Shown here: positions 1,436-21,014 of the stretch, piece by piece | Numbering within the stretch: position 1 is the first letter of the stretch | How the letters are laid out: every line of letters begins with the position of its first letter | NCBI GenBank assembly: GCA_024275415.1 | Contig: JAJRZD010000114.1 | Coordinates: 30,001 to 62,000 of the forward strand | DNA from: an archaeon | GTDB taxonomy: Archaea > Asgardarchaeota > Thorarchaeia > Thorarchaeales > Thorarchaeaceae | Direction of reading: 5' to 3' | DNA length: 32,000 bases | The notes under the pieces: generated by a model | The model's database searches: none | The model's input: only the letters and a program-made list of their open reading frames with translations | What the model was told of the DNA's origin: nothing | Position numbers and translations under genes: made by a program

Positions 1436-2080
1436 ATGCGATCTTGTCTACCACAGGAAGACCTTGAACAGGTCATCGCACTAGTATTGGCTGGGCTACG
1501 CGAATCCACTATACGTTGGTTTGACGAAGCGAATCTAACGAGAGATGATACCATACATGTCATCGAACTTGTCTTAAGACGACTTGACAAGCATTGGATT
1601 GAACGAAAAATACCTCTAACGGTGATATACGTGGCAGCACGTATCATTGAAGAGGTTGTAGAGCGATTTGAGGACGAGAATGGTAAGGACTCGGCAAAGA
1701 TTGGGACTGTTGTCATCGGGACCATGAGCGAGGACTTCCACTCTTTGGGGAAGAACCTTGTAAGGCGAACGCTCATGCCTTTTTTCCATGTCCATGATCT
1801 AGGCGTGAATGTCGATATAGACCGGTTCATCTCCTGTGCTAAAGAGCATGACGCAGACATCATCGCTGTTTCAGCATTGATGATGAATTCAGTTCTTCAG
1901 CTGCAATCACTCCGCAATGCGATTGATGATACTTCATGGAAAAAGAAACCTAAACTCATTGTAGGAGGAGCCCCTTTCACAATTGACTCTGAGTTGCACA
2001 AATATACCGGTGCTGATGCATATGCACCAAATGCAATCGTTGTGGCAGAGAGATGTATGGCACTCATGGATGTGAAATAA
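1436..2080 (+). CDS. Corrinoid (cobalamin B12-binding) protein, MtbC/MttC-like, with cap domain
   Basis: DxHxxG motif (EDFHSLGKNLV), plus DLGVNV, SALM and VGGAP motifs and an N-terminal helical cap. Confidence 0.92.
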   Translation: MRSCLPQEDLEQVIALVLAGLRESTIRWFDEANLTRDDTIHVIELVLRRLDKHWIERKIPLTVIYVAARIIEEVVERFEDENGKDSAKIGTVVIGTMSEDFHSLGKNLVRRTLMPFFHVHDLGVNVDIDRFISCAKEHDADIIAVSALMMNSVLQLQSLRNAIDDTSWKKKPKLIVGGAPFTIDSELHKYTGADAYAPNAIVVAERCMALMDVK

Positions 2081-2081
2081 A

Positions 2082-3098
2082 TTGAAGCCTATAGAACGAG
2101 TCCTCAAAGCGTTGGAATTCGAGGAACCTGACAAAGTCCCTCTCTGGCTGTTGATGACAGCGCGAGGGGCCACGGAGCTAGGACTTTCAATTTCACAGTA
2201 CTTTAGCAGTGCCAGTAATATTGTCAAAGGTCAACTGTTCCTGCAGGAAAAATACAATCACGATTGTGTCTATGCATTCTTTTATGCGGCAAAGGAGTAT
2301 GAAGCATTCGGAGGTATGTCCATGCAAAAGACCAGTGGGCCTCCTGAGTCGGGCCGGCCTATCTTCTCATCAGCAGAGGAGATTCTAGCAGCTGAATTGC
2401 CGGATATCGATCACGAAGCATTTTCAATCATCCATGAAACTCATAGAATGCTTAACAATGAAGTTTCTACTTGGTTGCCAATACTGAGTAATGTAGTCGC
2501 CCCGCTTTCTCTTGTTGTGATGCTTGTTGGCTTTGAGAAGTGGATTGAATGTATCATTGACACCCCAGAGATTGCACGTCAGGTCGTGGAATACCTTACA
2601 GACCATTCTATCGATCTGTCAAACCGATATTTCGAGGATGGCGTAGCTGGTTTAGGTTATTTCAATCCTGTGGCCTCGGGTCATATCTTAAAAATCGAAG
2701 AATACAAGGATATTGCGCTTCAATCAGATAAACGGTACTTCAGCTCAATTCATGGACTGGCTGCATACGCGCTTGCGGGGAGTCGTTGCGAATCATTGCT
2801 ACCAACTCTTGTTAAGGATGTAAAGGCCCGAGCTGTATTTGTGTCAAGCCAGGATGACCTTGCATCTATCAAGAAGGAATACGGGCGAAATGTGGTTCTT
2901 ATTGGAAACCTGAATAATATCTCGATGACTCATTGGGACGAAGAAACGGCCGATAATGAAGTAAAGAATTGCATTATGGCGGGTGCGAATGGTGGAGGGT
3001 TCATACTGGCTGACCATCATGGGGACATCTCATCGAGTGTCCCTCAAAAGGTAATCCAGCAGATAGAGAGGGCTCGGAATAAATGGGGAACATATTGA
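2082..3098 (+). CDS. Uroporphyrinogen decarboxylase / MtaA-CmuA superfamily protein (divergent)
   Basis: N-terminal ERVLKAL..EEPDKVP, LSNVVAPLSL..MLVGFE, IGNL and GGGFILA segments; 338 aa. TTG start 1 bp after the corrinoid gene stop. Confidence 0.85.
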   Translation: MKPIERVLKALEFEEPDKVPLWLLMTARGATELGLSISQYFSSASNIVKGQLFLQEKYNHDCVYAFFYAAKEYEAFGGMSMQKTSGPPESGRPIFSSAEEILAAELPDIDHEAFSIIHETHRMLNNEVSTWLPILSNVVAPLSLVVMLVGFEKWIECIIDTPEIARQVVEYLTDHSIDLSNRYFEDGVAGLGYFNPVASGHILKIEEYKDIALQSDKRYFSSIHGLAAYALAGSRCESLLPTLVKDVKARAVFVSSQDDLASIKKEYGRNVVLIGNLNNISMTHWDEETADNEVKNCIMAGANGGGFILADHHGDISSSVPQKVIQQIERARNKWGTY

Positions 3099-4357
3099 TG
3101 GAGCCAGACAACAAACATACCCGCAGACCTGTTAGCGGGAAATCTGATGAGAACCTTGATGAGCTCAGGCAGAACTCAGCAAAATACGCACTCATCCAAT
3201 ATGTTCTTGGTAGTATTGTTGAACACTCCAAACCCGAGGAGTCGCTTGCACTTATCTTGCAGGAGATAGCCACTCTAACGGCAGGGAAACTCCGATTGTT
3301 TGTCGAGATACACAAGGGCATCTGGGAAGGATTTTCACTGGAACACTATGAGAAACATCGTTCATGGCTTTCAAGGTATCTAATAGATGAAGACCTCTAT
3401 TCTGCTGTCACAAGATTTGGCGATGTCATCTATTATCGAAACTTGCCAGAAAGAAACAGGATATCAGAAGATATCAGACAGCACCTCGTCAAATCACAGG
3501 CGGAGTCGTTAGTGCTGGTACTGCTTCGGGGAAAGCCAAACATTGTCATTGAGGTTCAAGACTTCATCATCCCTGACCGGGCTGATCGGTACCTTGAGGC
3601 GATAAGGGAATTTGTACTCCCCCTGAAGCTGTCGTTACATCATACAATCCTATTGGAAGAGAGCGAGCGTGCGCGCAGACGTGCAGATCTCCTTCTCGAC
3701 CTCCTTTTTCATGACATTAGGAATTCACTCAACAACATGCAGGTTTCCCTTGAGCTGTTGGAAATGCGATGGGACGACAAACAGCGGTCTCGGGAGAACC
3801 TTCTACAAGCAATGGACTGCTCCAGAACCGCAAATAGGTTGCTAGACCGAGTGAAACGAATTCTCACCATGATGCCAAAGGATGATTTATCGTCGTATGA
3901 CCTCTGCACTGTATTCGAAACCTGTGTCGCAACAGTACGAGCGAATCACAGGGACATCACGACTGACATAGCATTCCCACGCCCTTCTACATGCCAGATA
4001 AAGGTGCTTGGAAACGATTTGATATACGACCTCTTTGAGAATTTGCTTTCTAATGCCGTGAAGGCGATGAAAGGAAAGGTAGGAAAAATCACTATAGAGG
4101 CAGATGTATGGGACATCAATCCAGCGTTTGCACATATCAAAATAATCGATCAGGGCTCAGGAATGCCTGAGAAAATAAGGCCTCAAGTGGCTGGCCGGTT
4201 CCTTACGGAGAGCACAAGTGGCATAGGACTGGGGTTAAGCATCGTGATGCGAATTCTCGAGGAAATAGATGGGTACCTTTGGTATGAGAACAGGGTTCCC
4301 GATGACATATCAAAAGGCACCATAGCAAATGTCGCGTTGCGAATTGACCGCAAATGA
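3098..4357 (+). CDS. Soluble sensor histidine kinase (GAF-like input, HisKA, HATPase)
   Basis: H-box FHDIRNSL, N-box NLLSNAVKA, G1 DQGSGM, G2 GIGLGLSIV. No TM segment. ATG 3098 overlaps the upstream TGA (TGATG). Confidence 0.92.
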   Translation: MEPDNKHTRRPVSGKSDENLDELRQNSAKYALIQYVLGSIVEHSKPEESLALILQEIATLTAGKLRLFVEIHKGIWEGFSLEHYEKHRSWLSRYLIDEDLYSAVTRFGDVIYYRNLPERNRISEDIRQHLVKSQAESLVLVLLRGKPNIVIEVQDFIIPDRADRYLEAIREFVLPLKLSLHHTILLEESERARRRADLLLDLLFHDIRNSLNNMQVSLELLEMRWDDKQRSRENLLQAMDCSRTANRLLDRVKRILTMMPKDDLSSYDLCTVFETCVATVRANHRDITTDIAFPRPSTCQIKVLGNDLIYDLFENLLSNAVKAMKGKVGKITIEADVWDINPAFAHIKIIDQGSGMPEKIRPQVAGRFLTESTSGIGLGLSIVMRILEEIDGYLWYENRVPDDISKGTIANVALRIDRK

Positions 4358-8116: not shown

Positions 8117-8145
8117 CTTTAGAATGTTGAACAGAAGTGATTTCA

Positions 8146-8406
8146 ATGGCAGGTAAGACCAAGCTCTTCAAGGGGCTCACAGAACATGATATCCTAACAT
8201 GGGAAGAGGAGAAGATGCGATTCCAGAGAAGAGTAGGTCAGAAGGTCACCGATCTGCAATTCTTACGGCACCTGCTCATGGTCGCCTCACGACCTGTGAT
8301 ATCTGGAAAGGACGGGGTTTCGAAAGGATTCCTCTCTGGGAACGGACCGATATACGACAAAGCTGATACGTTATTGGAGAAATATCGTTCAAGAACTCCA
8401 CCCTGA
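8146..8406 (+). CDS. Small hypothetical protein, possibly antitoxin/RHH-like DNA-binding
   Basis: 86-aa ORF from ATG 8146 with an SD-like GAAGTGA. Charged helical composition. The family call is inference only. Confidence 0.5.
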   Translation: MAGKTKLFKGLTEHDILTWEEEKMRFQRRVGQKVTDLQFLRHLLMVASRPVISGKDGVSKGFLSGNGPIYDKADTLLEKYRSRTPP

Positions 8407-8709: not shown

Positions 8710-9402
8710 GTGATGATGATGAAGGGCTCATCGAGAGATTCCGATTATTTGGACACGATTTTCAAGGCACTCGGACATATCACTCGAAGAAGAATACTCA
8801 GACTATTAGCCCAGAGACCTCATTATCCTTATGAGCTAAGCAAGACTCTTGGATTCACTTCAAGAGTCATTATCAAGCATCTGGAAGTACTTGAGAACGC
8901 GGGAATCGTTGAAACCGAAGCAGGTGAACGGAGCCTAGGACCTGAGAGGACGTACTACAAGCTCCGTGCAGGGTTCGGTCTTTCCACCACCATCCTCCCC
9001 AATTCCTTTGCGGTTCATCTACGTCCCAATACAAGGATAACTACCATCCGAGCAAGAATATCGCTTCCTCCTGTCCGCAACGATGTCCGTGCGGTCAAGA
9101 TATTGCTGAATGAACTCAGGAAGATTGACCGACAAATTACCGCTCTTGAGGAAAAACGCCTTCAGCTGATGAACCATCGGGGACTGATCATCCAGAAGAT
9201 TGAGAACATCATGGAGAACTGTTCATGGGATGAAGAGAGCTGTAGATTGATACGGAGTCATATCAATCCTGTAGATACAGGGAATGATGTCAGCGATGAG
9301 AAGCCGATCGAGAAAGTGTTGGACATTTTTGAAAAACGGTTCTCAGGGAAAGCCAGTAAAAAGAAGGACGATAAACAAGAAGTCCGGATTGAGTTCGATT
9401 AG
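8710..9402 (+). CDS. ArsR-family winged-helix transcriptional regulator with C-terminal coiled coil
   Basis: IFKALGHITRRRILRLL...ELSKTLG...IIKHLEVLENAGIV; RTYY wing; heptad region. Confidence 0.9.
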   Translation: MMMMKGSSRDSDYLDTIFKALGHITRRRILRLLAQRPHYPYELSKTLGFTSRVIIKHLEVLENAGIVETEAGERSLGPERTYYKLRAGFGLSTTILPNSFAVHLRPNTRITTIRARISLPPVRNDVRAVKILLNELRKIDRQITALEEKRLQLMNHRGLIIQKIENIMENCSWDEESCRLIRSHINPVDTGNDVSDEKPIEKVLDIFEKRFSGKASKKKDDKQEVRIEFD

Positions 9403-9403
9403 T

Positions 9404-10084
9404 CTACCAGTTGAGTTTGATTCTCCATTGGCTCCGATCCGTGCCTTGCATACTTGGGACGTATTCGATGGGGTTGTATGGCATATCAATTCCAGTGGAT
9501 TTCTTTATCATTAGGTAGTGTTTTCCCCGTGCAGTGGTCAAAGTGATGATTCCTTGTGCCAGGGAGAACAGCTGATTCATTGTGACAGAATCAGCAGTGT
9601 CAGAATGGATGAGATAGAACTCTATTGAACCCGTCTTGATGCTTTCCTCCACGCTTTCCTTGAAGAACTGCACAACATCCCGTGGAGTGAAATCGATGAG
9701 GAGAGGCGTCAGAGCCTCAAATGTGACAACATTGGGAGAGAGCATGTTCCTTAGGCTTCGCATCATGATATTGATCTCGTGGAGATGAGGCGAACAAGTA
9801 TGGTTGCCAAGTGTTTTTTGTCCGTAATTGACTTCAAGGATATGGAACGAATCGCTCTGCAGTCTGGTCATGTGTTCCATGAGCTGTCGGTTTCTTGCCT
9901 CAGTCACGACATTCAAGGTCTTCATCCCGTTCTCCAATGCGCTGTGGATTAGGGTAGACATGAACAGGTCATAATGGCTTTCTTGTGACGCCATAACTAG
10001 ATAGACATAGCCATTAGGAGGTTTGACCAGTAGACGGTCAACTATGGAAGGGGCCATCTCATTATTCAGGGATACTCCCGTCAT
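9404..10084 (-). CDS. Degenerate RecA/RAD55/KaiC-like domain protein (no Walker A)
   Basis: VTFEALTPLL, LFSLAQGIITL and YLMIKKSTG resemble the KaiC-domain C-terminal half. No GxxxxGK[ST]. SD GAGGT upstream. Confidence 0.65.
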   Translation of the reverse strand: MTGVSLNNEMAPSIVDRLLVKPPNGYVYLVMASQESHYDLFMSTLIHSALENGMKTLNVVTEARNRQLMEHMTRLQSDSFHILEVNYGQKTLGNHTCSPHLHEINIMMRSLRNMLSPNVVTFEALTPLLIDFTPRDVVQFFKESVEESIKTGSIEFYLIHSDTADSVTMNQLFSLAQGIITLTTARGKHYLMIKKSTGIDMPYNPIEYVPSMQGTDRSQWRIKLNW

Positions 10085-10098
10085 CTAGTGATTACCTC

Positions 10099-10470
10099 TT
10101 ACTCCTCAAGTCCAAGATGTTTTCTTATAGTCGCAACCAATGCCTTTCCTGAAAAAGGCTTAACAATATATTCGTCTGCACCGGCTTCCTTTCCTTCCTT
10201 GATGTCCTTTGTAAGCCCTTTCGCTGTGAACATGATGATGGGGATTGTCTTGAACTCATCCCTAGCCTTCAGACGCCGGCATACTTCAAACCCATCGATC
10301 TTTGGCAGCATCACATCCAGCAATATCAAGTCCGGCTTATTTTCAATGGCAATGTCAAACGCTGCTTCACCGTCATATGCACAGATGACTTGAAACCCAT
10401 GCTTCTCCAGGAACCTCTTTGCCAGTTCGGTCGTTATTTCCTCGTCATCAACGACTAGTATCTTTTTCAC
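10099..10470 (-). CDS. Stand-alone response regulator receiver (CheY-like), canonical
   Basis: VVDD, LLD (phospho-Asp), FTA and KPF are all intact. Probable GTG start at 10470 (the ORF track starts at 10488). Confidence 0.95.
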   Translation of the reverse strand: MKKILVVDDEEITTELAKRFLEKHGFQVICAYDGEAAFDIAIENKPDLILLDVMLPKIDGFEVCRRLKARDEFKTIPIIMFTAKGLTKDIKEGKEAGADEYIVKPFSGKALVATIRKHLGLEE

Positions 10471-10480
10471 ATCAGTTTCC

Positions 10481-11866
10481 TCACACAATTGGCATCAATT
10501 CGTAGTCCAAGAACCCTCCTGAGAGCAGTTGCCGGATAGCAAGATAGTTCGTTCTAGGCGAAACCCCACAGATGCTTAACACTCCACATATCTCCTGTAC
10601 TCGCAAGTGAATGTTATGCGAGATTGACTCACTGCGAATCCCCTGCTCCCGACTGAGGATTGCGATGGTCGTACGGTTGGTCGATGAAAGCGCAGTAGAC
10701 ATCTCAGCCAGCAGCCCTCTGACAACATTAGCTCCGTACATGTTCTCAAGCGTGTCCAGTGCAAAGAGCTCCGTGACTTCCTGATTGAACTTCCGTTCGA
10801 GCACATCTACCTCATACCTGATCTCTTGCAATGTCTTTAACGGATCCAAGTCCAGGTTCCTCGAGTTCGGATATGTCCCAATAGATTGCCTTCCGAAGAA
10901 GACCACTCGTTCGTCCACATGGCTCCTATCGATGAACTGTGTCAGGCTCTTGCTGAACGTTTCAGGAGACCAGCCTTCGGGAAGTAGAATCACTGCTGAG
11001 CGCCCCTGCTGTAAATGGTTCGATAGAAATGGGATATAAATGGTTTCCAGATAGGGAACTGATAAGTCATCCACCTCGATTAGCGTGACCTTGCCCTTTG
11101 GGAACCCACCAGACAAGAGTTTGTCCAAGCTTTCATTCCCGGTGGAGATGTACGCACTGGAGGGGTCTGGTATTGGTTCTCGCTCAACAGTGATTGCGGG
11201 GTATTCATGCTGGTACCATGGTAGGTATGTGAAACGCCCTTCGTGCAACGTGAACAGGTACGAGTCCTGATTGACAGGGTGCGCGCGCATCTTGTCGATG
11301 ATTGCCTGTCGATACATCCGCTGCCCATCACGGATCTTTTCTAGCTGGATGATCCCATCCGCAGAGTGTAATAATGAGAGTTCGTGCTCACCTTTCATTC
11401 CCTTTTCAACAATCAGAATCAGCTTCTTCATTTCTCGCCGTGCAGCATGGATCAGGGCTTGCTGAATGGAATACATCTTAGATGGCTCTAGCATATGCAT
11501 GAAATCAGACCATGAGTCAATGATGACGATCTCAGACTGGGGAATATCCTGTGATGAGTTCACCAATACACTGAGAGCTTCATGCAGGGAATCGATATCA
11601 GTTGGAATCTGTTCCATCCGTTGTCCATAATGCATCCGAAAACGCCGTTCACTCCAGTTAGGAACATCCTTTGATAGGCAAAAGTCCACGGCACTGATGT
11701 TCTCCGCACTCGTGATTATGATCTGCGAGTCAGGATAGTTTCTTATGAGCTCATGTGCAAACAAGGACTTTCCCGTGCCCGGTAGACCACGTACAACTAG
11801 GACATAGCCGTGTTCTTCTGATAGTACCTCTTTGATGCTAGGAGGCAATCCACCAGTTGTACTCAT
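10481..11866 (-). CDS. Two-domain KaiC/RAD55 ATPase, GvpD-like (N domain intact, C domain degenerate)
   Basis: GLPGTGKS, IIDSW, SADGIIQL and KMR in domain 1. Domain 2 starts STGNESLDKLLSGGFPKG but lacks the Walker A GKS. Confidence 0.85.
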   Translation of the reverse strand: MSTTGGLPPSIKEVLSEEHGYVLVVRGLPGTGKSLFAHELIRNYPDSQIIITSAENISAVDFCLSKDVPNWSERRFRMHYGQRMEQIPTDIDSLHEALSVLVNSSQDIPQSEIVIIDSWSDFMHMLEPSKMYSIQQALIHAARREMKKLILIVEKGMKGEHELSLLHSADGIIQLEKIRDGQRMYRQAIIDKMRAHPVNQDSYLFTLHEGRFTYLPWYQHEYPAITVEREPIPDPSSAYISTGNESLDKLLSGGFPKGKVTLIEVDDLSVPYLETIYIPFLSNHLQQGRSAVILLPEGWSPETFSKSLTQFIDRSHVDERVVFFGRQSIGTYPNSRNLDLDPLKTLQEIRYEVDVLERKFNQEVTELFALDTLENMYGANVVRGLLAEMSTALSSTNRTTIAILSREQGIRSESISHNIHLRVQEICGVLSICGVSPRTNYLAIRQLLSGGFLDYELMPIV

Positions 11867-11958
11867 GCAATGATCCCCTGTCAGAATCCCTTTTTTCTTT
11901 ACGACTTATATACATAAGTGGGGTCTTGATTCTGTGTAATCGTATCGAATGAGCAGCT

Positions 11959-13560
11959 CTATTTAGAGATTCTTTGTAGAAACTCAATAAAATACGGGCA
12001 CAATGAGCCTTTCCAGAATAGATTGCCCATACATCCCGTACGTGAAATATCTCTTACAACACGACATTCGAAATTCCTTTCACAGTTAAAGAATATGCAC
12101 TGATCACTCGTAACGGACTCGTCTTGAAGTATCCTTGCTCGTAGAGATTGCATCGGTTTGCTATCTGAACTGTTGACCCACAAGTCTGGGCTACCAAGCT
12201 GCTCACGCACCAACTCTATCTCGCTATCTTCGACTGGTTCTGCAATTGCCAGCTTAGTAACAATCAAGCTGACACGAGTATTGAAGGCATCAATGTAGTC
12301 GTTTGCATCCTCGGCATACTTCAACGCTTCAGCGTGATTTAGGAGAGATTCCTCGTATCTCTCTTGCATGAAATAGGTGTCTGCAATTTGGGATGTCACA
12401 ATGGCCCTGGCATCTTTCATCCCAGAACAGGTAAGTATTCTTTTGCATTCATGGTAGTACTGCAAGGCCTTTTCAAAATCCCCTCGTTGGAATGCCACAT
12501 CGCCTAAATTGACCGTTGCAAAGGCGATTCCACGCATGTACTCGGCTTCTTGGCTGATCTCCAGCGCTCGACGATTGTAGGATTCCATCTGATCGAACTG
12601 ACCGAGACCTCTGTCAATCTCACCTACATTAATCAACGTCCGAGCGAGACCTATCTCATTGTTGAGTTGCTGTTGTATCAGGAGGATGTCCTCAAAATGG
12701 TCGCGCGCCTCTTGATGGAACCCACATTCCAACAGGAGTACTCCGAGAAGATTCTTGGCATCTGCAAGTCCTTCAAGATATCCCATTCGCTCATAGCGTC
12801 GAATTGCTTCCCGAGCTATATCCATCGCCCGCTCGTATTCTTTTGACTTGTGAAGTACCATCGCCCGGAGATAGAAGACATCAGTCTGGGCAAGTCTATG
12901 GTCTAGCACTCTTGCAGTTTCCTCTGCGGAGTCAAGTCGTACCAATGCTTCTTCATGGGCTCTCCGTTGGATGTCGACATATGCCATCTGGATCCTAGCC
13001 CGCAGAAGAGCTGCCTGCACCTTGGAACGAATTTCAACGGTCTTTGCAGTTTCTTTTGTAACTTTCTCTATCCCTTCGGATGCCGTTTCCTTTGCCTTGT
13101 CTGTGTATCCGAGATAGGCGAGGATATATGCAAGCTGACCAGAGAGCTCCGCAAATCCGATATAATCCTTTGACTGCCATGCCTGATTTACGTATGTCCT
13201 GAGGTTGTTCACCCAACGTGGGTCTAGGCGTTGCCTGCAATACGCAGCTGCTGCATAACCCCTGCACATGATATTATCAGTACCCTTTGCAAGAACCTGA
13301 TTGTATCCATACATCCCCCTCAAATATGCCGCTTTCGCACACATCGATAGGAACCCTTCACTCAGGTTATACCATTCTCCAGCACCTATATACTCCAGAA
13401 GGACATCAGTGAAAATCATGAATCTGTCCTTTCCAATCCTGTTGCTCACTGAAAGATGCCGGACTATCTCATCTTGTTCAGATTCTGTAATCCGGTCCTC
13501 ATACATCGCGAACTCCGGGATTATGGGATTGTCCGTCAATTTTCCTCTACTCTCAAGCAT
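11959..13560 (-). CDS. Tetratricopeptide-repeat protein with Cys-rich C-terminal tail
   Basis: Repeated TPR units (GLADAKNLLG, GLARTLINVGEI, GIAFATVNLGDV). Start at ATG 13560 or 13506; the track's 13821 start overlaps the opposite-strand ATPase. Confidence 0.85.
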   Translation of the reverse strand: MLESRGKLTDNPIIPEFAMYEDRITESEQDEIVRHLSVSNRIGKDRFMIFTDVLLEYIGAGEWYNLSEGFLSMCAKAAYLRGMYGYNQVLAKGTDNIMCRGYAAAAYCRQRLDPRWVNNLRTYVNQAWQSKDYIGFAELSGQLAYILAYLGYTDKAKETASEGIEKVTKETAKTVEIRSKVQAALLRARIQMAYVDIQRRAHEEALVRLDSAEETARVLDHRLAQTDVFYLRAMVLHKSKEYERAMDIAREAIRRYERMGYLEGLADAKNLLGVLLLECGFHQEARDHFEDILLIQQQLNNEIGLARTLINVGEIDRGLGQFDQMESYNRRALEISQEAEYMRGIAFATVNLGDVAFQRGDFEKALQYYHECKRILTCSGMKDARAIVTSQIADTYFMQERYEESLLNHAEALKYAEDANDYIDAFNTRVSLIVTKLAIAEPVEDSEIELVREQLGSPDLWVNSSDSKPMQSLRARILQDESVTSDQCIFFNCERNFECRVVRDISRTGCMGNLFWKGSLCPYFIEFLQRISK

Positions 13561-13692
13561 TTCTGGAAAGAACCCAGATTCAAACCCGTACACAGGAATC
13601 AAAAGCGTTCTAGTGATTCCTTTCGCATGAACATAGGCAAGCAAATAAGTAATATATTTGAAGCTATGATGAATTAGGACTGAGAGGATGCA

Positions 13693-14448
13693 ATGGCGAA
13701 AGAGAGAATCAGCAGCGGAATTCAGGGGCTGGATCAGATACTTAATGGCGGCTACATCAAAGGACGCTCCATGCTCATTGCAGGGGGTCCTGGAACCGGC
13801 AAGAGCATCATCGCATGGCATTTCATCTTCGACGCGATAGATAATGGAGAAAGTGCAATCCTTCTCTCACTCGATGAGCCATCAGACCTTATCATAGACG
13901 ACATGAAATCCTTCGGTTGGGATCCAGAGAAGGCCATATCGGATGGCAGGCTTACAATCCTTAGCGGCACGCTCAAGCTGGTGCCTTCAGGTTCGGGATA
14001 CTAGTATCTGATATCTTTCGAACATCCCCTATTCAGAGAGAAACCATTCACCATACCCCGACTGGCTGAACTGGTCAAGCAAAAGGCTGCTGAAACCAAG
14101 GCATCTCGGATTGTCGTCGATGGACTAGCACCCTTACTAGAGTTTGCAGGGAGCCGGTTTGAGATACGGCAAACAGTCTATACCTTCATGAGAGAGTTGA
14201 TATCCCATGATTCCACAGTCCTTCTCACCCACGAGCTGAGGACCCTCAGTGGATCTCAGAACGACGAGATGCCCTACTTCATCTCTGATGGCGTCATAAA
14301 GCTGGACACTCTGTATGCAACCGGCGATTACATTCGGACACTACGTATTGTAAAGCTGCGTGGGACTAACCATTCGATGAAGCCTGCCATGTTCAGGATA
14401 CAGGATGATGGCGTCGCTGTCTTCCCTGAAGCTAGAATACCTGAATGA
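13693..14448 (+). pseudogene. Single-domain KaiC/RAD55-like ATPase interrupted by an in-frame TAG at 14002-14004 (nonsense allele, read error or read-through)
   Basis: ORFs 13693..14004 and 14188..14448 are in the same frame, and the intervening sequence is open and encodes Walker B RIVVDG. Joined product is 251 aa with GGPGTGKS, SDGVIKL and KLRG. Confidence 0.85.
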
Positions 14449-14449
14449 A

Positions 14450-14818
14450 TCATAGGACAGGCTGCACTTTTCTCATCAGGTCGATCAGGTCAAACATTGA
14501 GAAAGGCTTGAGTAAGAACCCTCTGGCTCCCGCGAAGAAGACCTGGTCGCTGGAATCGTCCACAAATTCCGCCATGGCAATAATCGAGATGTGTGCATCG
14601 ATGTCAAGAATCTTCTCAATCGTTCGCATTTGCTCGGACTCTGATATCGAGAGATCAAGTAGCACAATTCCGACCTTATGACTGCTGCAATAGGCTAAGA
14701 GGTCTTCCTCAGTGTCCGGCTCTCCAACCACCGTGTACCCTGCCTCTTCTACAGCCATCCGAACCAACGACCTCAGAAGTGGAACATCACCAGCTATTAC
14801 AACATTCAAAGGATTCAC
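14450..14818 (-). CDS. Stand-alone receiver domain, atypical
   Basis: Receiver fold with LLD and KPF, but AGD replaces DD and Ala occupies the switch Ser/Thr position (IIAMAE). Confidence 0.85.
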   Translation of the reverse strand: MNPLNVVIAGDVPLLRSLVRMAVEEAGYTVVGEPDTEEDLLAYCSSHKVGIVLLDLSISESEQMRTIEKILDIDAHISIIAMAEFVDDSSDQVFFAGARGFLLKPFSMFDLIDLMRKVQPVL

Positions 14819-14863
14819 CTTTCAAGTGCCTGAATAGTACCACATCTGTAACACATTAATGGT

Positions 14864-15226
14864 TTACTCTGACACAGCGGTTTCAATCAGATCCAGCATA
14901 TGCCGAATCGTGACAGGTTTGAGACCAAAACTAACCGCACCACCCTTCATTGCCTCTTCTCTGACGTTCGCATCTGCACTGATGAACACAATCTTCGCGT
15001 TCGGCTCGATCTCTAAAAGTTCCTTCATAGCCTCCAGCCCATCCTTGTTAGGCATGCGATGGTCGAGGATGAGAACGTCTGGCTTTGGCTCCATCTCTCG
15101 ATATTTCTGCACGGCTTCCTCTCCATCAAAGGCATCTGCGACCACTTCATGCCCCTTGATCGCAAATACGTCCTTGTAAAGCCTGTGAAGAATCGGTTCG
15201 TCATCGATTATGAATATGGATACCAT
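14864..15226 (-). CDS. Stand-alone response regulator receiver (CheY-like), canonical
   Basis: IIDD, LILDHRMP..DG, ISA and KP. Confidence 0.95.
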   Translation of the reverse strand: MVSIFIIDDEPILHRLYKDVFAIKGHEVVADAFDGEEAVQKYREMEPKPDVLILDHRMPNKDGLEAMKELLEIEPNAKIVFISADANVREEAMKGGAVSFGLKPVTIRHMLDLIETAVSE

Positions 15227-16186: not shown

Positions 16187-16609
16187 TCAAAAATCAAGGA
16201 TATCTATGCCAGATCCGTTCAATGCAGTGCCCAGTTCCGTAATGAACTTCTTGGACTCATTCAGATGGTCAAAAACCACGTTTTTGATTGTTATAAAATC
16301 GACCTCGCCATACCTATAGAGTATCATATTCCTCAATCTTGTTGCTTGTTTCATATTCATAGCTGTTTCAGAGGTGATCAAAGACCTTTGTGCTAAGATC
16401 TTGAATGCATTAGAGCAAGTATCCGGAGTTTCCCCTCCAAGTCTTCCTAGCACCTTTAGGGTCAAGTCGATTGTGCCTTGAATAGATGAATACAAATTCC
16501 ATAGTACAAAGGATTGAAGTCTAGAATCCTGGCTTAATGAAGCAACATCAATGTCCCTTACTTCTTCCAGTCGGTCTAGTGATTGGGTGATTAGATTGAT
16601 CAATGCCAA
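16187..16609 (-). CDS. hepT: HEPN / DUF86 toxin (HepT-like) with catalytic His replaced by Tyr
   Basis: DUF86 pattern (LYSSIQGTIDL...NAFKILAQ). The motif reads RNMILYRY rather than RX4HXY. Coupled to the upstream MNT gene. Confidence 0.8.
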   Translation of the reverse strand: MALINLITQSLDRLEEVRDIDVASLSQDSRLQSFVLWNLYSSIQGTIDLTLKVLGRLGGETPDTCSNAFKILAQRSLITSETAMNMKQATRLRNMILYRYGEVDFITIKNVVFDHLNESKKFITELGTALNGSGIDILDF

Positions 16610-16988
16610 GACGTTTCCTCACAGCTTGTTTGTATATCTCAAATGAGTCTTTAAAGTCAAGCCCTTCAATCAAAGCATTCGTGTAGAATTCAGTATGTAC
16701 CTTATTGCTTCTAGTGAATAGCAGAATGCCTTCAGAAACCACCTTCAACTTAAGAAGTGGAGGGGCATGATTGAGAATAACAAGATCCACATTGTCGCCA
16801 ACAACATCTGAGGTGGAATTCAAGATATCGATGAATTTCCCTGAAGTGTATTCATCTAAGAATACCGCAACATCAACATCACTGAATGGATGTGTCTGGT
16901 TTCTTGCTACAGATCCGAATAGATATGCGAATACTACATGCTCGTTCTTTTTCAGCTCTGCACGCAATGTTACAGCAATGTCGACCAT
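16548..16988 (-). CDS. mntA: Minimal nucleotidyltransferase antitoxin (MntA-like)
   Basis: AYLFGS-X10-DVD motif, VDLVILN and PPLLK. Probable ATG 16988. Confidence 0.9.
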   Translation of the reverse strand: MVDIAVTLRAELKKNEHVVFAYLFGSVARNQTHPFSDVDVAVFLDEYTSGKFIDILNSTSDVVGDNVDLVILNHAPPLLKLKVVSEGILLFTRSNKVHTEFYTNALIEGLDFKDSFEIYKQAVRKRLGIDQSNHPITRPTGRSKGH

Positions 16989-17287
16989 TGTCACACATCT
17001 ATCAGGAGATGATAGATTTGACACAAATAAGTCCGAGCTATCGAAATCGACCATTGTACTCATGACAGTGGTCTGAGGTTCAAGGCCGACACATGAGACC
17101 ATTGACAACTAGGGATACGGTTCGCAAAGGAAATGAGTGCGTTGACGGTGGTCTAAGTCTGATATATGGCGGTGAAAGACATAATGCCCGTATTACATCA
17201 TCTAAAATATTTGTATGGTGTCGTCAGTGTGGGGAAATACTGCTAAACTGTTATTGATCCGAAAGGGATCCAAAACCTCACTACTGA

Positions 17288-19891: not shown

Positions 19892-20347
19892 CTACCGCCT
19901 AGAATATGCATAGCGCAAAAAGACTTGGAAATCCAAATACATCCGAATTGTCAGATTTTGTATGCTGGCATAGAGGTAGTGATCCCTACAGAAGACCAAG
20001 TCACCATCTGTGAGTACCTTGTATCTAAACGGGAGAGATGCTTCATTTAGAACCTGTACATCGATAGGCAATCCCAGTTCTGCTTCCAGACTAGCAGCGA
20101 AGTCAATGGTAAAGGCATAGGTGGAGTCCTTGTCAGGTTCACGGATATAGACTGCTATGTCAATATCACGGAAGGATGAATCTGTATTGAAACTGCCATG
20201 GATGACACCGAAGATGATTTCCTCTTCTATCGCAAGAAGATCACTTATTTGCTTTCGGAGGTTCTTTCTTTCCTCAGGAGATGCATCATAATACCTGAAT
20301 TCTATAGATGGAGGATACCTATCGTCATTTGAACGCTTATCACTCAT
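19892..20347 (-). CDS. mntA: Minimal nucleotidyltransferase antitoxin (MNT)
   Basis: HGSF...RDIDIAVY and IDVQVLN. ATG 20347 overlaps the HEPN stop. Confidence 0.88.
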   Translation of the reverse strand: MSDKRSNDDRYPPSIEFRYYDASPEERKNLRKQISDLLAIEEEIIFGVIHGSFNTDSSFRDIDIAVYIREPDKDSTYAFTIDFAASLEAELGLPIDVQVLNEASLPFRYKVLTDGDLVFCRDHYLYASIQNLTIRMYLDFQVFLRYAYSRR

Positions 20348-20780
20348 CGCGCTTCGCCTCCTTGTCAAGTATCTTCCTTATTTCCTTGATGAAGTCCAAG
20401 AAATCCTGTCTTCCAGACTTCAGTAACTCGTAGATTTTCTCGTCATCAATCACCCAGTATCTATGGACAAGTATGTTACGTAATCTGCTTGCGGATGCGA
20501 ACTTGTTCCCTAAGGATGTAGAAAGCATTCCCTTTTGGGCCAGTCTACTAAAGCAGCTCGGAAATCCCGCGGGTTTCTCATTGAAGAATACTATCATCAT
20601 GTTGGTACAGATTGTAGCTGCGGCTTCCACAAGTTGGATTATCAGATATCGTAATGCCATATGTTCGGTGGTTCCCAGATCATGAAAGTCACTTTCAATG
20701 ATTGGACTCAATGCGAATAATGAGTCGTTAATATCGCGAATTCGATCTTCAATCAGATCAACGTTAAGATATCTTGACAT
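20340..20780 (-). CDS. hepT: HEPN / DUF86 toxin (HepT-like), intact motif
   Basis: RNILVHRY (RX4HXY). Probable ATG 20780. Confidence 0.9.
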   Translation of the reverse strand: MSRYLNVDLIEDRIRDINDSLFALSPIIESDFHDLGTTEHMALRYLIIQLVEAAATICTNMMIVFFNEKPAGFPSCFSRLAQKGMLSTSLGNKFASASRLRNILVHRYWVIDDEKIYELLKSGRQDFLDFIKEIRKILDKEAKRDE

Positions 20781-21014
20781 ACTATCAGGATAACTTTGTC
20801 GGGAGAGTCCAATAAACATAGTGATTGCTATGAGGACTAAATCGGGGTTTGCGATCTTGACCAATCAGACCGAAAAACGACAGAGAGTCGCTATCGGACT
20901 GGCCATGTTCAAAACGTGCTATTCGATCCCATAAAACGTGACTGCATGTGAACAATTATACAGGTTCCCGATTCAGCTTCCTTGCAATAGCAGAGCTTTG
21001 GAATAGGTTATACC

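Follow-up and report, generated by a model that had tools for sequence, protein, structure and literature searches.

A family-specific Thorarchaeota signalling gene cluster whose three KaiC-fold proteins are present or absent as a set

When KaiC-fold proteins, stand-alone receivers and a transcription regulator are encoded side by side in an archaeal genome, do they belong to one signalling system, and are the KaiC-type ATPases its hub? The question is raised by a 32,000-nt stretch of DNA (the window, whose numbering we use throughout) from a Thorarchaeaceae archaeon (GCA_024275415.1, contig JAJRZD010000114.1, positions 30,001 to 62,000 of the forward strand). The studied genome, labelled G000, is an estimated 92.9% complete. 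Between positions 8710 and 15226 the window encodes eight genes, which are, in this order, those for an ArsR/Phr-like regulator, X226, REC1, Kai2, a TPR protein, Kai1, REC2 and REC3. A first-pass annotation had described them as a kinase-free signalling hub built on KaiC-type ATPases, and all eight genes and their domain types were found where it had placed them by Pfam, fold and profile comparisons. Domain calls were made by Pfam profile searches with curated cut-offs, supplemented by NCBIfam. Folds were assigned by comparing AlphaFold (AF2) models with Foldseek, and profiles were compared with one another by hhalign.

Joint loss of the KaiC-fold genes

The locus is a genuine signalling gene cluster that is found only in one Thorarchaeota family. 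We annotated 62 loci of this family, each anchored on the TPR gene; some were cut by contig ends or held remnants of genes. In all full loci long enough to show it, the order REC3>REC2>Kai1<TPR>Kai2>REC1>X226>ArsR< was identical (each arrowhead gives the orientation of the gene before it). Gene order and orientation are thus conserved, and the objection that the first-pass annotation had raised against itself, a cluster not shared by relatives, falls away. A second, core form of the locus, REC3>REC2>TPR>(REC1>)ArsR<, lacks all three KaiC-fold genes. Among the 86 genomes of the family, the TPR gene was present in 71, covering all 16 genera, with Kai2 in 34 and X226 in 37. The X226 orthologues in a species-representative genome collection all came from Thorarchaeota metagenome-assembled genomes (MAGs).

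The three KaiC-fold genes are present or absent together. Kai1, Kai2 and X226 were all intact in 22 loci and all absent from 30, and no locus that could be judged was mixed; the remainder of the 62 are cut by contig ends or hold remnants. When the state of the trio was placed on a maximum-likelihood tree of the TPR protein, it changed 12 times, at least nine of them on well-supported branches. Kai1 changed with Kai2 in nine of nine independent contrasts (p = 0.0039), and X226 did likewise; REC1 went with the trio only about half of the time. Remnants give the direction of change as loss, since G017 retains fragments of all three genes, G345 a fragment of X226 and G362 a fragment of Kai2, and G370 has a split X226 and no Kai2. 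Moreover, because the TPR gene, which is retained, separates Kai1 from Kai2 and X226, the trio cannot be lost in fewer than two deletions.

The best argument that the three KaiC-fold proteins function as a single unit is this pattern of joint loss, which also shows that the receiver-TPR core can dispense with them. The proposal that KaiC-type ATPases are the hub of the cluster is contradicted, as in about half of the family REC3-REC2-TPR(-REC1)-ArsR persists although these genes are all gone. A second part of the same proposal, that active and inactive KaiC-fold proteins act together, fares better: presence or absence as a set in nine independent contrasts speaks for it indirectly, although not with these proteins as hub. 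The co-loss pattern fits the idea of a mixed active/inactive oligomer.

The same observations could also arise if two unrelated systems were interleaved here, one made of receivers, the TPR protein and ArsR, and the other an inserted KaiC module (Kai1, Kai2, X226 and perhaps REC1) with a different target. We regard this main rival as possible but unlikely. The core does stand intact without the trio in 30 loci, trio-like sets in other Asgard families keep company with Ras-like GTPases and TackOD1 proteins and not with receivers or the TPR protein, and the N-terminal part of the TPR protein is confined to the family while Kai2-like and X226-like proteins range more widely. However, a single conserved promoter element precedes TPR and the Kai2, REC1 and X226 genes that come after it on its strand, Kai1 occupies the space between REC2 and TPR, and all 29 full loci show the same interleaving. 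REC1, too, often stays beside the core in loci that have lost the trio. We keep to a single module of two layers as the preferred reading.

Some loci depart from the common arrangement. In genus g4 (L072, L105, L109 and L112) ArsR and REC1 form a divergent pair that has relocated to the opposite side of REC3, which suggests that the two stay linked after loss of the KaiC-fold genes. Two loci carry insertions: a gene for a TrmB-HTH/MEDS (inactivated KaiC) regulator lies between X226 and ArsR in G013 (L017:11644-13077), and one for an N6/N4 DNA methylase lies between REC1 and Kai2 in G018 (L018:4618-5547). Beside the cluster, positions 8137 to 8406 (+) hold an 89-aa open reading frame (ORF) that has no Pfam or NCBIfam match and is 66 to 85% identical across the family. 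Its place is always between DUF389 and the ArsR-like gene, and it persists even in genus g3, where ArsR is missing.

Live and dead KaiC-fold proteins

Kai1 (13693 to 14448, +) is a single-domain, KaiC-CI-like ATPase that scored 163.8 bits against KaiC (PF06745) when an in-frame TAG at 14002 to 14004 was read through; its C-terminal piece alone (14188 to 14448, +) scored 51.4 bits against a cut-off of 26.6. In an alignment of 10 orthologues the Walker A motif GGPGTGKS was invariant and the Walker B motif (I/V)V(I/V)DG(L/I) invariant or nearly so, and D-E/Q occupied the position of the catalytic EE pair of KaiC. Kai1 aligned with KaiC over its full length (E 1e-52 to 1e-59), matching CI better than CII. 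The first-pass annotation had pointed to Tyr-Phe at the phosphosites of KaiC. That alignment is correct, with PYFISD of Kai1 opposite ISTITD of CII and with Y and F opposite S431 and T432, but the nonphosphorylated CI domain itself reads EFVSD there, so Kai1 is a CI-type domain and not one with a modified phosphosite. Kai1 differs from circadian KaiC in having one domain, no S/T sites, no kaiA or kaiB in the window and an interrupted frame.

That interruption qualifies the description of Kai1 as a single-domain ATPase: it is KaiC-like and has Walker A and B, but its reading frame is broken by the TAG. The position held D or E in all nine aligned orthologues, and the TAG was the only stop among 25 Kai1 orthologues. 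Reading it as pyrrolysine was rejected on the D/E found in orthologues and on the failure to find PylS in the genome, at its estimated completeness. The TAG is either a recent nonsense mutation, with the optional KaiC layer just starting to decay, or an assembly error.

Should the TAG be a true nonsense codon, the KaiC layer might already be nonfunctional in the studied genome, having taken the first step along the path of decay seen in G017, G345, G362 and G370. We think this rather improbable. The rest of Kai1 is intact, as are Kai2 and X226, and an assembly error of one base, or a minority variant in the MAG, would give the same picture, yet the replacement of a conserved D/E by the sole stop among the orthologues, the missing PylS and at least nine losses of the trio within the family are all as decay would have it. 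Relaxed selection on the cluster was considered and rejected: a relative-rate comparison gave only a mild, genome-wide difference for the studied genome, with no acceleration specific to the cluster.

Kai2 (10481 to 11866, −; 461 aa) is a GvpD-like, two-domain KaiC-family ATPase (KaiC, 60 bits), and its motifs agree with the earlier description of one intact and one degenerate domain. The N domain has Walker A and Walker B, with G27, G30, G32, K33, D117 and S118 invariant. The C domain starts with a KaiC-type STGNxSLDxLLGGGF, has VDNLAVPYLET at the position of the P loop and aligned with the N terminus of Kai1 in a profile comparison (probability 89.6%). Residues 233 to 312 matched PAXNEB in Pfam. 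The match of Kai2 to GvpD_P-loop (PF07088) was 24.4 bits against a cut-off of 24, and that to basic region 2 of GvpD (PF20440) was 17.7 bits against a cut-off of 27.9.

X226 (9404 to 10084, −; 226 aa) had been called a KaiC-like protein without Walker A, and its model bears this out. It is of good confidence (pLDDT 85.3), and Foldseek matched it to FlaH/ArlH (4yds), PH0284 and KaiC-CI with E values of 3e-12 to 1e-10 and TM scores of 0.63 to 0.70. MASQ(E/D)SHYD replaces GxPGTGKS, and VVTFE replaces IIDSW, the Walker B Asp thereby becoming Glu. The X226 profile aligned with the Kai2 N domain (hhalign E 4.5e-5); a direct comparison of the X226 and Kai1 profiles was not significant (E 0.17), and the two are linked through the Kai2 N domain and the fold. 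At the level of sequence X226 stands apart: it matched no Pfam family at E values up to 0.01, and hence neither MEDS (PF14417) nor DUF835 (PF05763), its best NCBIfam match was FlaH at E 1.7e-4, far under the cut-off, and a sequence search against solved structures gave no match. Orthologues are 59 to 83% identical to one another, and 1.84 billion cluster representatives yielded only 22 matches. X226 and the Kai2 C domain are both inactivated KaiC (iKaiC), with the KaiC/RecA fold and a lost P loop. Together, the motifs of Kai1, Kai2-N, Kai2-C and X226 confirm four RecA/KaiC-type domains in different states.

The KaiC fold belongs to the RecA superfamily, and the window has toxin-antitoxin pairs and a restriction-modification methylase nearby, which would be expected if the genes were a set for antivirus defence or for DNA repair and recombination built on RecA-superfamily ATPases. 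We consider this very unlikely. PADLOC returned only generic HTH, REC and TPR matches and none for the three KaiC-fold proteins, Pfam found no nuclease or helicase domain in the cluster, and relatives do not have the toxin-antitoxin genes at this place. The pairs, of the HepT/MNT type, lie at 16187 to 17108 and 19892 to 20864; the first is probably an insertion, having a GC content of 38% where relatives have other genes between REC3 and GGR.

Similar genes recur in other settings. A second signalling cluster of the same genome (L023, G000:C97:17000-36000) has a REC gene overlapping a Kai2-like gene of 477 aa, together with genes for a 296-aa KaiC, two divergent KaiC-family proteins (one of them DUF7504-like), a HisKA-REC protein and two large PAS kinases. 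The Kai2 paralogue on C97 scored 56 bits against GvpD_P-loop, and G035 (L059) has the same kind of Kai2-like/REC cluster. In another Asgard family (L066, G149:C1:3328000-3345000), Kai2-like, KaiC and X226-like genes accompany genes for a pair of Ras-family GTPases and for two TackOD1 proteins, of which one carries an AsnC-type HTH. The KaiC-fold trio appears to be a portable device, joined to different input proteins in different settings.

The TPR protein, the receivers and the regulator

Strand and spacing divide the cluster into a REC3-REC2 unit, Kai1 alone, a TPR-Kai2-REC1-X226 operon and the ArsR-like gene on the opposite strand. TPR is the first and X226 the last gene of the operon, in which TPR and Kai2 are separated by 92 bp, Kai2 and REC1 overlap by 8 bp and REC1 and X226 are separated by 14 bp. 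Kai1 is divergent from this operon and convergent with REC2, and the ArsR-like gene is convergent with X226.

A TPR gene is present as the first-pass annotation had it, but its start had been called too far upstream. The ORF as listed (11959 to 13821, 620 aa) is over-called; orthologues place the start at 13560, about ten residues before a conserved PIIPEF, giving a protein of 533 aa (11959 to 13560, −; TPR_12 and other matches). With this start the gene no longer overlaps Kai1, and the two are separated by a divergent intergenic region of 132 bp. The AF2 model is a continuous α-solenoid over residues 18 to 478 (pLDDT 82), and a search for specific fold relatives matched only generic TPR solenoids. 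The last 45 residues carry four invariant cysteines (C488, C499, C510 and C521), spaced 10 to 11 residues apart, in a part of the model with low confidence; metal sites are often modelled with low confidence. Beyond the studied genome, 68 of 85 family members had the N-terminal 200 residues, as against none of 315 genomes sampled from the rest of the phylum. The TPR protein is family specific.

The only conserved block in the alignment of the Kai1/TPR intergenic region is a promoter-like element (13598 to 13626, −) that occurs once in the window. Its sequence, given for the TPR strand, is GCGRA-N7-8-YTAGAA-NNCTTTTGAT, and about 40 nt separate it from the TPR start codon downstream. Under a strict pattern it was found at this fixed distance in 42 of 59 loci, a variant form being present in the other loci that were read, and it accompanies both the full and the core forms. 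Its place and composition fit a promoter of the BRE/TATA type. The alternative that it is an ArsR operator, missing where ArsR is missing, was discarded: the strict pattern alone hinted at it, and variants of the element were found in those genomes.

Of the three stand-alone receivers that had been described, all have the receiver fold, but the acidic pocket of one is degenerate. REC1 (10099 to 10488, −; Response_reg, 106.5 bits) and REC3 (14864 to 15226, −; 77.3 bits) are canonical: in orthologue alignments all five receiver positions (D12/D13, D57, T/S87 and K109) are conserved, as DD, D, T and K in REC1 and as DD, D, S and K in REC3. REC3 is also the most conserved protein of the cluster, with 64 to 92% identity across the family. 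In REC2 (14450 to 14818, −; 53.4 bits) the acidic pair is G-D in the studied genus and G-E, G-I or G-S elsewhere, D57 and K109 are kept, and the studied genome has A at the T87 position. On these residues REC2 is probably a pseudoreceiver.

The ArsR-like gene (8710 to 9402, +) encodes a winged-helix regulator of the ArsR/Phr/SurR kind whose C-terminal tail is long and helical. It scored 37.8 bits against HTH_5 (cut-off, 22), and its longest matches were to Phr_regulator (E 1.1e-18, residues 17 to 176) and SurR (E 6e-11), both below the NCBIfam cut-offs. The gene adjoins the cluster in most full and core loci, and the regulator is likely to be the output of the module.

Pfam and NCBIfam found no kaiA, kaiB, gvp, che or kinase gene between positions 8710 and 15226, and the conserved cluster held no cognate kinase gene in any relative examined. 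To that extent the locus is "kinase-free", as had been claimed; however, a HisKA/HATPase_c kinase is encoded at 3083 to 4357, 4.4 kb upstream of the cluster, and the genome as a whole gave 30 HATPase_c matches against 21 receiver matches. In archaea it is the norm for stand-alone receivers to be encoded away from kinases (PMC5847659). Such a cluster is thus not special in lacking a kinase, in a genome where kinase matches outnumber receiver matches. The upstream kinase is soluble, stands in one tight run (1436 to 4357) with a B12-binding protein and a URO-D/MtaA-like protein, and has a nearby counterpart in none but the closest relatives (43 to 47% identity). A profile search did not find CheW in the genome. 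A search of the genome for the gvp family PF00741 gave no match either, although the control genomes gave none as well, which makes the control uninformative.

A proposed two-layer module and its relation to known systems

With moderate confidence, we favour a family-specific signalling module of two layers, in which kinases, receivers, a TPR scaffold, a KaiC assembly and a Phr/ArsR-like regulator would be linked through contacts, a source of phosphorylation and an output that we infer. The first layer, always kept, would consist of REC3, the putative pseudoreceiver REC2 and the TPR/four-Cys protein, usually with the ArsR/Phr-like regulator alongside. The second, optional and lost as a set, would consist of Kai1, Kai2 with its live and dead domains, and X226, with REC1 embedded between Kai2 and X226. 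Histidine kinases encoded elsewhere would phosphorylate REC3 and REC1. The receivers would bind to the TPR scaffold and, in full-form loci, also to a mixed live/dead assembly of Kai1, Kai2 and X226. This assembly may act on the Phr/ArsR-like regulator as GvpD does on GvpE, binding it and lowering its activity or amount, and so set transcription. A link between receivers and ATPases is plausible, given the place of REC1 inside the Kai2-REC1-X226 part of the operon, the recurrence of a Kai2-like/REC pair on C97 and in G035 and the published REC-iKaiC fusions.

Several points weigh against this reading. The genomes are MAGs, and one of them, G358, has two complete copies of the cluster (L080 and L081, the same records as L025 and L038) that group with g1 and g6 on the TPR tree; this bin is probably mixed. 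The flanking 89-aa ORF, DUF389, LysE, Pcp, ECF and GGR are syntenic as well, which makes gene order alone weak functional evidence. About half of the family has the core and no KaiC-fold gene, so that the two layers may be separate systems. Kai1 is broken in the studied genome. Finally, the analogy of Kai2 with GvpD comes down to a marginal P-loop match, with the second GvpD region below its cut-off.

A bolder version, which we hold to be quite improbable, would give the two layers specific tasks. The four-Cys tail of the TPR protein would bind a metal or an iron-sulfur cluster and read redox state, and a Kai1/Kai2/X226 hetero-oligomer would serve as an ATP-driven timer or remodeller that gates the Phr-like regulator. 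The whole would then be an Asgard-specific device, independent of KaiA and KaiB and tuned by receivers rather than by autophosphorylation.

Makarova, Galperin and Koonin reportedly described, in 2017, neighbourhoods in which archaeal KaiC-like ATPases act as signal transduction hubs, and a similar arCOG neighbourhood may be listed among them. Like those, our cluster places single- and two-domain KaiC ATPases and inactivated KaiC-fold proteins next to receivers and HTH regulators. In contrast to such neighbourhoods and to fusions, it consists of separate genes in a fixed order of eight in one Thorarchaeota family, its TPR/four-Cys protein and X226 match no named family, and some loci lack its KaiC-fold genes, which were lost jointly. 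Fusions of REC with iKaiC, MEDS, DUF835 and TPR and divergent REC/ArsR gene pairs are documented in archaea (PMC5847659).

Four other systems invite comparison. The gene pair GvpD-GvpE belongs to haloarchaeal gas vesicle clusters, and GvpD combines a KaiC-like domain with a P loop at its N terminus and a second region without one. Kai2, at about 460 aa, is built likewise and is also encoded near a transcription regulator, but the window has no gvp genes and the nearby regulator is Phr/ArsR-like and not GvpE. With cyanobacterial KaiABC the cluster shares the alignment of Kai1 with KaiC and a putative pseudoreceiver, REC2, beside a KaiC-type ATPase, much as the pseudoreceiver domain of KaiA accompanies KaiC in function. 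It differs from KaiABC in the single CI-type domain of Kai1, with Y/F at S431/T432 and D-E/Q at the EE pair, in having no kaiA and in that the sole KaiB-like match is below threshold and on another contig. This ORF (24.7 bits; cut-off, 27) lies directly upstream of the best KaiC matches of the genome, which are two adjacent domains, and the two may be a kaiB-kaiC pair encoded elsewhere in the genome (G000:C104:19825-21533).

The third system is Rap-Spo0F of Bacillus, which the cluster resembles in encoding a TPR solenoid with single-domain receivers; Rap is among the fold matches of the TPR protein (TM about 0.61 on the target). This match is generic, however, with LGN, APC and OGT ranking higher; the two have no sequence relationship, Rap has no four-Cys tail and no phosphatase motif was identified. 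In Haloferax volcanii, mutations in the KaiC-like CirA and in the receiver regulator QarA give the same motility and shape phenotype (PMC13464002), so that a single-domain KaiC-like protein and a receiver regulator are linked in one pathway, in line with the reading favoured here. In contrast, those genes come from another phylum, are not clustered and lack a partner of the TPR or inactivated KaiC kind.

Full-text literature searches found no paper on this Thorarchaeota cluster. It adds to the known archaeal KaiC-like signalling neighbourhoods, and its arrangement is probably new. In archaea, bare receivers make up about 40% of response regulators, and most of them lack a conserved neighbourhood (PMC5847659). 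For the receivers of this family the cluster names candidate binding partners, namely, the TPR/four-Cys protein and the three KaiC-fold proteins. The family also offers a natural deletion series, as about half of it lacks the KaiC-fold genes and has the core, from which predictions follow for full-form versus core-form organisms. Lastly, it gives evolutionary evidence on catalytically dead KaiC-fold proteins, which in this family are kept only alongside live ones.

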